Below are positions 18,423 to 31,609 of a stretch of 64,000 nt of DNA, piece after piece; positions within the stretch are counted from its first letter, which is position 1; every line of letters starts with the position of its first letter. The position numbers were made by a program, and so were the translations under genes. Origin of the DNA: Octopus vulgaris (Eukaryota); NCBI GenBank assembly GCA_951406725.2, contig OX597821.1, forward strand, positions 65,162,001-65,226,000. The letters run 5' to 3'. The notes below the pieces were generated by a model that worked only from the letters and a program-made list of their open reading frames with translations, was not told the origin of the DNA and did not search any database.

Positions 18423-18460
18423 CTGTTGAAAAGGTCTCAAAATGACCGAAACCGGTACTG
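18423..18460 (+). ncRNA. Minimal type I hammerhead-like motif, U3-A8 core variant, at the PLE 3' end
   Basis: CTG TTGAAAA GGTC-TCAAAAT-GACC GAAA CCGG TA CTG; palindromic loop III; GUA triplet. Confidence 0.7.
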
Positions 18461-18742
18461 AAAGATTCACTATAAAATCATCTTAGCATTTTCTATTTTT
18501 GACTTGTTTTTTCATATATATATATATACATATATATATATATATATATATATATATATATATATATATATATATATATATATATATATATATATATATA
18601 TATATATATATATATATATATATATATATATATATATATATATTCATATATATACATATATATATATATATATATATATATATATATATATATATATATA
18701 TATATATATATATATATATATATATATATATATATATATATA

Positions 18743-18950
18743 TTTATTATATAGAAGGAGCTTCTACATGACTAGAACTGTTTCATTCAAGAGAAATCTT
18801 CAGGAAGCTCCTGAGCTTCCTGAAGATTTCTCTTGAATGAAACAGTTCTAGTCCTGTAGAAGCTCCTTCTATATAATAAATTAATTTTACTCTGCTATGT
18901 ATTGAGTACCTTATTTACTGTGGTTAACCCCGAATCAACCCGGGACCTAC
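18743..18950. mobile_element. Palindromic hammerhead element in (TA)n: 68-bp arms, 2-nt loop, near-intact type I HHR at 18813-18865 (+) and its mirror on (-)
   Basis: GAGCTTC CTGAAGA TTTC-TCTT-GAAT GAAA CAG-TTCTAGTC-CTG TA GAAGCTC; arms differ at one base. Confidence 0.88.
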
Positions 18951-19923
18951 ATATATATATATATATATATATATATATTTAAATATTTGTTGTGCAAGAT
19001 TTTTTATGTGAAGTCGTGTGTTGAAACAGATATTGTTATATATTTTTTTTTTCTCGATTAGATTTATTATTATTATTACTAATATTGTTGTTATACATAC
19101 ATACAAGCATATGTAATGATAATAATGGGTGGATGTAAACACATGAACAAAATTAGAACAAAAGCAACAACAACAAAAACAAAATACAAATTACAAGAAT
19201 GTATATAACCAGAAGATACAAATATTACAGGCATCCCCCCACACACACACTAAATAAACATAGACGCACATAGAGATATAAGCATGCGCAAATGAAGACA
19301 TACAATAGAAATACAAAATGGCTGACGGTTAGTAAGGAGAGACACAAGTAAGTGAGAAGAACACAAAGGACCACTGATGCGGTCACAGGAGTGTGACGAA
19401 AGAACTTTGGCCGAAATAAGATTAAGATTAATGTAAAAAATAAATATCACTGAAGCAAAATAACACCAAATATATATATGCGTGTGTTTTTATTGGCTAA
19501 ACTGGCAATATGACCATTCCGAAATATAACAATATATATATATATATATATATATATATATATATATATATATATATATATATATATATATATATATATA
19601 TATATATATATATATATATATATATATATATATATATATATATATATATATATATATATATATATATATATATATATATATATATATATATATATATATA
19701 TATATATATATATATATATATATATATATATATATATATATATATATATATATATATATATATATATACAAGTAATAAGAGAGAGACCATATGTCGTCAC
19801 TCTAACGCTAGAAATAGATCCGCAAAGGGAATCCACCATTAAAGAATTGTTCTCAGGCATTAATCCAACACGCCAATAATGTAAGCGGGCAGGACAAATG
19901 AAAAATAACGAAAAAATAGATTA

Positions 19924-19999
19924 ACTCTATACAATTGTTTCATCGTTAATAGATTGTGTAATTTTACTTACATAATCATTTTCAAATCTTCAGCAGAGT
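19924..19999 (-). ncRNA. Type I hammerhead ribozyme-like motif with a long stem II
   Basis: Minus strand: ACTCTG CTGAAGA [TTTG..GATTATGTAA-GTAAAA-TTACACAATC..CGAT] GAAAC AATT GTA TAGAGT; 6-bp stem I; palindromic loop AATT. Confidence 0.8.
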
Positions 20000-27572: not shown

Positions 27573-27785
27573 TATTTCTTTATTACCCACAAGGGGCTAA
27601 ACACAGAGGGAACAAACAAGGACAGACATAGGTATTAAGTTGATTACATCGACCCCAGTGCATAACTGGTACTTAATTAATCGACCCCGAAAGGATGAAA
27701 GGAAAAGTCGACCTCAGCGGAATTTGAACTCAGAACGTAACGGCAGAGGAAATACGGCTACGCAATTCGTCCGACGTGCTAACAG
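27573..27785 (-). mobile_element. SINE family A copy
   Basis: Tail ATTTCTTTATTACCCACAAGGGGCTAAACACAGAG, core and head as at 2436. Confidence 0.85.
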
Positions 27786-28994
27786 CGTATATAAAATACC
27801 GGTAACATTTTGTCTGCAGCTCGAACAATTCAACCACGTGACCGCCTTGAAGCTGATAAATTGTATTCTCTTAACCAGGAATCAAAGCTGCACGGGAAAC
27901 TCTACACACAATTTTGTAATTTTAAATGAATATATGTCACATTCCATATTTTTCTGAACCTATTGTCTTTGTTTAACTCAGCCGTGGCTGTTACTCTACT
28001 TTTCCGAGGTTGCTTAATACTATACAATATCCCCATCCTTACGGCGGTAAATTTAGGGGAGAGCTGACTGCTGTTCCTAGCAGGTCAACCGACTAAACAA
28101 TAGTGCGTGTGTGAATTGACTTCGTTTATGTGTGTGTGTGTGTGTGTGTGTGTGTGTGTGTGTGTGTGTGTGTGTGTGTGTGTGTGTGTGTGTGTGTGTG
28201 TGTGCGTGCGTGTGTGTGTGTGTGTGTGTGTGTGTGTGGAGTGTTGACTTTCTTGCAATTAGTTCGGCTTTAAAATACATTAAAACTCCTTATACACAAT
28301 AGATTCCGCTCCAGTGATGTAGATCTGTAAATTTCCAATGTTATTCTCTTTAAACTATAATGCCTTTGATCCTTTGTAAACAGCTCATATATGTAAACAT
28401 TATCTATATTATTATAGGAAAGATGGTGCTAGCGTATGTGATAAAGTAAACCAACTTTTAATTAATTAAAATTACACTCGCAGTGATGAAAACAATAAAA
28501 AGTATGTACGTGCATACATATCTTTTTGTATGTGTGTATACACACAAACACACACACACACATATGTATGTATGCATGTATGTTTGTACCAGTGTGTGCG
28601 CATGTGTGTGTACACGCACACATATACTTGGAAAGCAGCTCAAATATGGATATGACCCTGTCTTGTTAATTAACTGGAAAGCGGCAATGGTTTTACCACG
28701 ACTGTCACATTTTTGTGTTTTCTCAGTTAAATAGGATGCGGAATCTTAAAATTTGGTATCTTGTACAGGCATTTTTCACATCAGACCACGGATAAGAAAA
28801 CATTATGTCTTACTATGCAGTCGTCCTCTAAACTCCAAGTCGTTTTTCTTTTGTAACGCCTTTTATGTCAGTGATATTAATTATCACTTGCTTAATCAGA
28901 GCTCTAGCACCATGGAATTTAAAGATTTTGAATTCACACTCGCAAGATCTCTGCGGCTTTTAGTGTACATGACTAACGGGCTGTTTCTGCTTAA

Positions 28995-29215
28995 CATTGT
29001 AATATCCGTAGCCACTTCAACATGGCTGTCTGTTCGAAAGGACTCTACTGCGATTTTTTAACTCCAAGCGGACATCTCCTCTAGCTGGTTAATGATGCAA
29101 AGCTGCACCCGATAAATCACGAACAGGGGAGCGAACCCCTACGACCTTCCAGCGACGGAACCAATAGACCAGTCCCGGTTTCGGGTTATTTTTCTCACTT
29201 TTCGGTACAGCCATG
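28995..29215 (-). mobile_element. Diverged relative of the 15546 fold-back arm, with a positionally homologous decayed hammerhead (about 29162-29210)
   Basis: GACATCTCCTCTAGCTGG resembles GACACCTCCTCCAGCTGG; minus strand CTGTA CCGAAAA ... GAAA CC-GGGACT-GG TC TATTG. Confidence 0.55.
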
Positions 29216-29364
29216 TTAACGCGGCTACGAGTATTCCTTGTCAGTAAAACTACTGCGTTGATATCTTAGAGAGATTTTAGAACTAGCATTTTTAATTTTT
29301 GATTGTACTTCTCCCTTAATCACATTCTTATCCCACTTCGATTTTCCCAATAAATATATATATA

Positions 29365-31609
29365 CAGTCAGCAAAAAATAATGAGAGAACTAAAATCCAT
29401 GTTAAACCTATACAAGGAAGGGCTCACCGACAAAGAATATGACTATATTACCAATTTCAAAAGTAAAACCAGCCAATTCTACGGTATTCCCAAGATACAC
29501 AAAAGTGAAAAAATAAGTAACGCATGCAAGATAGCCACAGACAAAATAATTAAAGTCCCTTCTCCTAATGACCTCAAATTGAGACCTATAATAGCAGGTC
29601 CCGCATGCGAAACCCACCGCCTCAGTAACTTTTTAGATAGCCTCTTAAAACCATTCCTCAAGCATGTCAAAAGCTATATAAAGGACGACCTGGATATGTT
29701 CAATCACCTTCCTAAAACAATAAACAAAAACACCCTACTAGTATCCTTCCATGTAGTCAACCTCTATTCCAATATTCCCCACAACCTCGGAATAGAGGCA
29801 ATTCAATTCTGGCTAGAGAATTATGCGAACGAATTCCCACATCGCGTCAAAAATGAATTCGTGATAGAAGGGCTAAAATTCATCCTGGAAAATAACTATT
29901 TCGCCTTCAAAGACAACTTCTACCGACAAAAATCGGGGACTGCGATGGGTACGCGAATGGCCCCCTCCTTTCCTAACCTAGTCATGGGATATCTAGAATT
30001 TAGTCTTTATCGTAAGGTCCTAGAAAGATACGGCAGCTCTTTCTCCATCTACATAGAAAATTACTGGAAGAGATACCTAGATGGCTGTTTCGTTCTTTGG
30101 CATGAAAATATAGAGAAACTTAAAGAACCCCAATCACTTTTAAATGGACTTGACGTAAACATTTAATTCACGATGGAATATAGCCAGCAACAACTCCCAT
30201 TCCTCGACGTCCTCATTAAGAATTCTAATAACGTAATAGAAACAGATATACACTATAAACCTAAGGATTCTAAGCAATATCTGCCATTCAATTCATGCCA
30301 CCCCAGACACAATAGAATAAATATCCCCTTCAACCTAGCAAAAAGGATATTTACTATAGTTTCTAATGCAAACACAAGAGACACACGACTACATGAACTA
30401 AAAGATACACTCATCACTAGGAACTACCCACTTTCAGTAATTGCCATATGCTTACAACGTGCCCTTCAACTCAACATCCAGGAACTCAGACATCCCAAAT
30501 TAAAGAAAAATTTACAACCAAAAGTCCTACCATACATCTCCACACACAATCCTCTCAGCGATGAAGCCTTCGACACCATCCTCCAAAACATACCCCTGCT
30601 AAAAAAGGACCACAGAATGAACTTAATCCTCCAAACACACACCATCATAAAAAGCAAGTGACAGCCCAAATCTATGAAAAGTCTCCTAACACAAGCCCGA
30701 ATACGCTCAACAACACAGAAGCCGTCAGTAAAAAACAATTGTGGGATATGCGATTATCTAATTGAGGAATAAGAGTTCTCTTTCAAACAGGGACAACTTC
30801 ACATGTGCTTCGGAGAAATTGATATACACACTAACCTGCTCTGGGTGTCAAGAGCAATACATAGGCCAAACAAAAAATAGTCTACGTAAAAGAATGGCCC
30901 TGCACAGATCCCAGATAAATATTCCCCAAAACAGAAAAATAGCATTCAGCCAACACATAGACATTTGCGCCAACAACAAAAATCCAAGCTTCAGTATTTT
31001 TCCCCTCAACCAATTCAGGGACGATACAACCTGGAGCCAACGAATTAGTAGACTCTCTTTATTACAAAATACAGGCCCCTTCTGAACGGGTCTACGACAA
31101 ACGACATATCCACCTCGGACTTAGAATAACACAAATACACATGCAAATATTAAAAATGATACACACAAGAGATTCCCAAGAATTCATTAAAAAACAATCC
31201 CAATCACTGCTAGAATCCATAACGTGCCAATTTTAAGTCATTTAAACATTTAACACCTTACTAATTTCACACTATCTACATTCCTTCTTATTCTCCCTTC
31301 TTCTTCTTCTTCTTCTTCTTCTTCTTCTTCTTCTTCTTCTTCTTCTTCTTCTTCTTCTTCTTCTTCTTTTTCTTCTTCCCTACCAAAAATTCACAAGAGT
31401 AAACAAGAGAGACAGAGACATGCAGAAACAAAGAAAATGCCCCTTGTATTTGAACACTATACAAATATTCTTTAAAAAAAACTTTTTTTTAAATTTTTCT
31501 AAATTTAATTGTTTAATTGTTACAGTTGAAAAAGTCTCAATGACTGAAACCGGCACTGAAATGTTTTTTATAAAATTATTTTAGCATTTTCTATCTTGAC
31601 TTTTTTTCC
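29365..31609 (+). mobile_element. Penelope-like retroelement copy 2, inactivated by stops at 30164 and 30659, frameshifts and YLDD>YLDG; between (TA)n tracts
   Basis: FYGIPKIHK, LRPII, SFHVVNLYSNIP, QKSGTAMGTRMAPS, LPFLDVLI, YIGQT; colinear with copy 1. Confidence 0.95.
31523..31558 (+). ncRNA. Hammerhead-like motif of PLE copy 2 (U3-A8 core; triplet mutated to GCA)
   Basis: CAG TTGAAAA AGTC-TCAAT-GACT GAAA CCGG CA CTG. Confidence 0.65.

Follow-up and report, generated by a model that had tools for sequence, protein, structure and literature searches.

A family-wide U3-A8 hammerhead motif in the pseudo-long terminal repeats of an octopus Penelope-like retrotransposon, a candidate slow and dimer-only ribozyme

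Hammerhead motifs in the pseudo-long terminal repeats (pLTRs) of Penelope-like elements (PLEs) have been described in several animals, among them the variant that concerns us here. A U3-A8 pair was reported in pLTR hammerheads of the Cercyon PLEs of Schistosoma mansoni (~1,300 hits), and the supplement of the same work gives UUGAAAA as the core of S. mansoni motif 4 (Cervera and de la Pena, 2014, PMC4209133). Penelope hammerheads with this core pair have been in print since 2014 and are not new. Natural U3-A8 and U10.1·U11.1 core variants were also reported by Perreault et al. (2011, PMC3088659), and U3-A8 cores are said there to be active in vitro. In this study, we have analysed 64,000 nucleotides of Octopus vulgaris (assembly GCA_951406725.2, contig OX597821.1, positions 65,162,001 to 65,226,000, forward strand; hereafter the window), where an earlier note, made from the sequence alone, had proposed that a Penelope family ends in a functional hammerhead with the core TTGAAAA. 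Based on our results, we infer with moderate confidence that the whole family shares a type I hammerhead motif with a U3-A8 core, located in the pLTR of an endonuclease-positive (EN+) Penelope-like retrotransposon, and that it would act as a slow, dimer-only and perhaps protein-assisted ribozyme. The variant hammerhead of the earlier note thus stands as to its type I fold, its fixed core and the kind of element that carries it; as a new variant it does not, being already published.

As far as the available parts of these sources describe them, the Cercyon hammerheads share with the octopus motif the core, the pLTR location, the type I architecture and a predicted dimer. Their stem II is 7-8 bp long, with an additional base ahead of 10.1, and stem III is nearly absent, whereas the octopus motif has a 4-bp stem II without the extra base, a 6-nt palindrome, A17, and a U3-A8 majority among CCGG-loop motifs of its genome. 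The hammerheads of Drosophila virilis Penelope and of rotifer and shrimp PLEs are alike in their short palindromic helix III, short helix I, pLTR location and possible overlap with an intron end, but the available sections of the paper describe them without a U3-A8 core (PMC4209133). The variants of Perreault et al. (PMC3088659) show the same compensatory core pair, and a U·U stem II base as in octopus sister families and also in axolotl HHR_Amex2; their U3-A8 cores are described as rare, whereas octopus holds thousands of copies in many families. Our literature search, which did not extend to subscription journals, found no publication on octopus U3-A8 hammerheads. To judge from a title alone, Lunse et al. 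reportedly deal with small hammerhead variants that cleave as dimers, and may already include such variants.

Two insertions in the window carry the motif, with the following features, all on the forward strand:

16627..18513, + strand: copy 1, a 5'-truncated PLE of the youngest subfamily (A1), with the C-terminal half of the reverse transcriptase (RT), linker, GIY-YIG domain, 3' untranslated region/pLTR and a (TA)n end
18420..18463, + strand: copy 1 hammerhead, U3-A8 core, G10.1-C11.1, ACCGGT palindrome
18420-18425 and 18458-18463, + strand: stem I 5' and 3' arms of copy 1
18426-18432, + strand: core TTGAAAA of copy 1
18433-18447, + strand: stem II of copy 1, GGTC/GACC with a 7-nt loop
18448-18451 and 18452-18455, + strand: GAAA and CCGG of copy 1
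18456 and 18457, + strand: U16.1 and A17 of copy 1, with the predicted cleavage site after A17
29363..31609, + strand: copy 2, of the older subfamily B1, 5'-truncated and decayed, with stops, frameshifts and deletions in open reading frame (ORF) 2 and a (TA)n end
31520..31561, + strand: copy 2 hammerhead, U3-A8 core at 31526-31532, A10.1-U11.1, stem I intact
31533-31545, + strand: stem II of copy 2, AGTC/GACT with a 5-nt loop
31550-31553, + strand: CCGG of copy 2

The earlier note had read both cores (from 18426 and 31526), the two forms of stem II and the CCGG loop III correctly. The interval 18423..31558 is not one element; it holds parts of two distinct insertions, both truncated at the 5' end and from different subfamilies, with 85% likeness across the ORF, and we rejected the idea that they are the two pLTRs of one element. 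The protein of copy 1 is 97% identical to residues 401-784 of ORF2 in a near-intact genomic copy, L172 (tblastn), and its GIY-YIG domain falls just below the Pfam cut-off (22.5 bits against 22.6, E 1.5e-4). Copy 2 matches the same ORF2 in three pieces at 83-94% (tblastn), and its nucleotide relatives are 95-98% identical. Each copy bears a private change that postdates its insertion. At 18424 copy 1 carries T in place of the A of its nearest relatives, a change that breaks one stem I pair and creates the alternative parse with CTGTTGA that the earlier note had entertained; this parse arises solely from the private T and requires a U at A6. Copy 2 has U16.1 changed to C at 31554 (T in all 29 other retrieved loci), so it has lost the A15.1-U16.1 cleavage-site pair and reads CA at 16.1-17, in place of the UA of the family and outside the UH of a hammerhead core.

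The core itself belongs to the family. We searched the 2.8-Gb host genome with a family pattern left open at positions 3, 7, 8, 10.1 and 11.1, and the reversed pattern as control, which gave 3,621 matches against 0; base tallies here and below were counted by eye on the first 100 listed matches. All 100 carry TTGAAAA, and none has C3 or G8. Because of this, the U3-A8 core is not decay of the canonical core, and the family consensus is not the CTGANGA that the earlier note had named as the sign of such decay. The youngest members agree: the best genomic matches to the 3' end of copy 1 are 98-99% identical, and the 30 loci retrieved with copy 1, at 99-100% over the query, have TTGAAAA. In 18 of 18 aligned copies the catalytic positions are invariant, and with U3-A8, GAAA and UA the family has the core of a type I hammerhead.

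The stems point the same way. Stem II has 4 bp, and its 10.1-11.1 pair is G-C in 55, A-U in 26, G·U in 11, A·C in 5 and otherwise in 3 of the first 100 of the 3,621 matches, so 92 are paired. Over 18 chosen copies, 91.4% of all cells are paired (17.6-41.4% for slid partners), with 95.6% in stem II and 84.5% in the stem I of subfamilies A and B, which consists of 3 bp, a mismatch and 2 bp. Stem I shows a covariation of its own, C-G to U-A at 2.3-1.3. The A-U form of stem II has 865 exact matches in the genome. Among the first 100 of 1,256 motifs with A10.1, positions 11.1-12 read TG in 84, CG in 6, CA in 0 and otherwise in 10, whereas the loop III CpG of the same motifs has decayed on both strands (TG 11, CA 12); U11.1 was therefore present in the master, and this one-sided TG led us to reject CpG decay as the origin of the A-U form. 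The 7-nt-loop subfamily gives a TG:CA ratio of 14:1 in the first 100 of 2,294 motifs, and 13 of the 14 TG motifs carry the older flank. A tree of the flanks alone (126 of 152 motifs, the 26 with unlike flanks omitted, collapsed to 104 rows; no outgroup, and bootstrap values unsettled) places A-U in older, more diverged groups and G-C alone in the youngest, with a five-copy U11.1 group (4 G·U, 1 U·U; support 92/95) beside basal G-C copies. The base of stem II probably went from A-U through G·U to the canonical G-C, a direction that has to be inferred because the tree has no outgroup. The covariation that the earlier note saw between the two copies is accordingly a genuine difference between two subfamilies, for which CpG decay does not account, yet it amounts to a single change, with a G·U lineage as intermediate.

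The element has the anatomy of an EN+ PLE. ORF2 of L172 matches RVT_1 (34.1 bits, cut-off 29.6) followed by GIY-YIG (22.4 bits, cut-off 22.6, E 1.5e-4), with the motifs GLKFTP, DKG, YLDD and YIGQT, and its linker contains CGRPNCGIC at 650, a CX4CX2C form within the CX2-5CxxC of Neptune and Nematis. The described parts of these EN+ PLEs (Craig et al., 2021, PMC8557442) are alike in RT, CX4CX2C linker, C-terminal GIY-YIG, and the GxKF and DKG motifs, and also in pLTRs, an inverted truncated partner, a one-sided tail and (TA)n targets. A full-length copy, L175, runs from a pLTR with hammerhead through ORF1 and ORF2 to a second pLTR; its hammerheads lie 4,386 nt apart, and ORF1 starts 123 nt past the cleavage site. 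Tandem pLTRs with hammerheads, inverted partners and one-sided tails are all present: head-to-head pairs with an inverted truncated partner are common (including L171-L174 and L176-L178), and of 119 scored 3' ends (overlapping loci included) 109 lie 53-55 nt past the cleavage site, 79 finish in a simple repeat and 35 are extended as a tail. At L175:2855-2630 the full-length element is followed immediately downstream by a hammerhead and ORF1 that belong to another Penelope family, an arrangement suggestive of insertion into related pLTRs.

The available parts of PMC8557442 give canonical EN+ PLEs a single ORF, whereas this family has two: ORF1, whose open frame between stops spans 436 codons, and, overlapping it in the -1 frame at U UUU UUA, ORF2 (784). 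Of 30 loci sampled by position, 20 have a U UUU UU(A/U) site at the overlap, 123-144 nt before GLKF, and ORF1 stops 30-69 nt beyond it; at least six families show this site (L175:5857-5917 (-), L172, L177, L179, L241-L270). The sequence makes programmed -1 frameshifting at this overlap likely. On a frameshift between ORF1 and the RT-endonuclease, our literature search found only the Fig. 1 legend of Craig et al. (2021, PMC8557442), which allows a frameshifted ORF1 in some PLE types.

The same core recurs well outside this family. A census of CCGG-loop motifs only (GAAACCGGTH fixed, gap 10-26 nt) gave 4,505 U3-A8 matches (control 65), 395 C3-G8 (control 40), 316 C3·A8 (control 54) and 205 U3·G8 (control 37). 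The U3-A8 figure includes a few double counts but leaves the window family largely aside, and many of the mismatched hits visibly derive from U3-A8 families by a single mutation. Among the CCGG-loop hammerheads of this genome, U3-A8 is the most frequent core. In other U3-A8 families, several of which lie downstream of a GIY-YIG region, the stem I sequences are unrelated but pairing is kept. Of the 145 pairs in 29 loci chosen by position (L147 dropped as a duplicate of L146; related copies, about six families), 115 are Watson-Crick, against a shuffle mean of 53 and maximum of 76. We relied on this test because the choice of 19 hand-picked representatives is biased (83 of 95 pairs; mean 33 and maximum 58 for swapped arms). 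Position 17 is A in 7, C in 13 and U in 9 of the 29 loci while U3 is constant; U3 is therefore neither merely a part of stem I nor held by A17. Four such families (L141:2803, L189:2531, L202:2046, L150) have an 8-nt stem II of 1-2 bp and a stem I of 6-7 bp, and others (L149, L160, L003) use an ACATGT palindrome.

The best evidence in this analysis that the 3-8 pair is selected comes from a two-core retrozyme family of ~359 nt (L064-L070, L184, L185, L209, L210). The first 100 of its 339 cores comprise 43 C3-G8, 48 U3-A8, 9 C3·A8 and 0 U3·G8, and the first three occur as lineages that each form tandem units. The C3·A8 class has C at position 7, which suggests a route from C3-G8 to U3-A8 via CpG decay. 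Through this tandem family, which shares the ACCGGU palindrome and has U3-A8 lineages, the motif resembles metazoan non-LTR retrozymes (PMC7229834; Li, 2026, bioRxiv 10.64898/2026.07.22.740005); the window motifs, unlike such non-coding tandem units, belong to a coding element.

How could such a motif work? As a monomer, the hammerhead fold is predicted to be unfavourable (+0.9 kcal/mol, minimum free energy -8.3), whereas a dimer joined through the ACCGGU palindrome is favourable (-18.5 kcal/mol), so that the palindrome would supply stem III; the motif has no defined loop I. In our model, two ACCGGU palindromes would pair as stem III of the dimer, with each core acting on the other strand and cutting it after GUA, so that stem I would set family specificity. 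The ribozyme would serve to cut tandem transcripts down to single units. Since new insertions retain sequence flanking the cleavage site on either side, the template would be uncut or a re-ligated circle, and cleavage would be occasional or protein-assisted, possibly followed by ligation to a circle. Selection would act only on transposing masters, and pasted copies, including both in the window, would decay.

Several observations weigh against this model. In the dimer of lowest predicted energy (-22.9 kcal/mol) U3 is paired with A17, which corresponds to the C3-G17 pairing described as an inactive hammerhead trap (PMC3884650), and by that analogy slow cutting is predicted. Published PLE hammerheads are reported to cleave weakly, even as dimers (PMC4209133), and in the anole element cleavage is described as protein-assisted and dispensable for insertion in vitro (Frangieh, 2024, PMC11167929). 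The mismatched C3·A8 state has spread in tandem retrozyme units, and in the flank tree an A10.1·C11.1 mismatch has spread in a small clade, so the 10.1-11.1 pair is not strictly required. A covariation check of the kind that the earlier note had proposed, on the alignment of 18 chosen copies, supports the pairing, but its 3 covarying pairs were equalled in 127 of 500 shuffles; within the lineage, only one stem II pair and one clear stem I pair covary. Stem I is short, with just 2 bp plus a mismatch in subfamily C. For the two window copies, finally, each private change is predicted to damage the hammerhead.

The alternative that survives best, though we hold it to be unlikely, is that in A17 families the fold rarely or never cuts, with U3 locked to A17, and serves as a structural or protein-binding element beside the start of reverse transcription. 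The U3-A17 pair of the lowest-energy cofold fits this, as do the 3' ends beyond the cleavage site, which imply a template uncut or re-joined. In the available parts of the literature, catalytic mutants of the anole ribozyme had no effect on insertion in vitro and no RNA-seq ends fell at its cut site (PMC11167929), and Naiad elements spread without canonical hammerheads (PMC8557442). Yet U3 is constant whether position 17 is A, C or U, every catalytic position is invariant in the aligned copies, and G17 traps are reported merely to reduce activity in stabilised ribozymes (PMC3884650). We would give less credence to a wider scenario, in our view distinctly improbable, in which U3-A8 displaced C3-G8 as the main hammerhead through repeated CpG decay with C3·A8 intermediates, U3-A17 serves in A17 families as a safety catch until a second copy and an element protein open it, and the host inactivates the ribozyme through A-to-I editing of its all-A core. 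It is very improbable that the U-rich tract and YAG before U3 form a 3' splice site, a working ribozyme with a different stem I arising only after splicing, as in D. virilis Penelope. A pyrimidine tract, CTAAT and CAG, TAG or AAG do directly precede U3 in subfamilies A-D, and the D. virilis intron end is reported to map to the helix I 5' end (PMC4209133); however, AG is absent at that site in other U3-A8 families, the stem I covariation from C-G to U-A agrees with a helix formed by the unspliced RNA, and no donor was identified. That TTGAAAA is post-insertion decay of CTGANGA, with the stem II difference due to chance, is scarcely credible: although both changes are transitions toward A+T and 11.1 lies within a CpG in subfamily A, the reading is refuted by the family matches without C3 or G8, by near-identical young copies that all carry TTGAAAA, and by the missing CA class at 11.1-12 in subfamily B.

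A third U3-A8 hammerhead in the window, which had escaped the earlier note, belongs to a different Penelope family:

20197..20241, - strand: hammerhead with core TTGACAA, a 6-bp stem I, the same palindrome and a decayed stem II

It sits in a pLTR stub of ~240 nt (20110-20348, - strand) that is 91.5-92.7% identical to L148 and L165, and in the family to which it belongs, stem II has U·U as its basal pair and position 17 is A, C or U. An Rfam scan of the window (E<=1) yielded 188 matches, and the 150 that were listed include no hammerhead. A near-perfect hairpin of ~130 nt (18745-18878) adjoins the (TA)n after copy 1, and a decayed-looking palindromic repeat (29008-29192), 71-76% like L061, which carries a C3-G8 hammerhead, abuts the 5' end of copy 2. 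Open frames at 55848-57101 (-), 60995-62095 (-) and 20540-21130 (+) are presumably remnants of other non-LTR retrotransposons. At L175:7229-7238, four contigs from one run, guessed to be RNA and labelled with another organism, show G on the element strand in place of all four A of the core; the same run (X14) has 10 T>C sites, whereas three other runs have 1-2, with no matched DNA. This may be a faint sign of possible A-to-I hyper-editing of the hammerhead core. Among the rows listed for the contigs of 8 sequencing runs there was no splice-like joint.

In conclusion, the variant itself adds little to what is known, and its value lies in offering test material for the role of PLE hammerheads. 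The octopus genome offers thousands of copies and a dated subfamily series with A-U, G·U and G-C at the most conserved stem II pair, natural C3-G8, C3·A8 and U3-A8 forms within one retrozyme family, and sister families that differ at position 17 (A, C or U). With CUGANGA as the only query, most of the CCGG-loop hammerheads in this genome would be missed.

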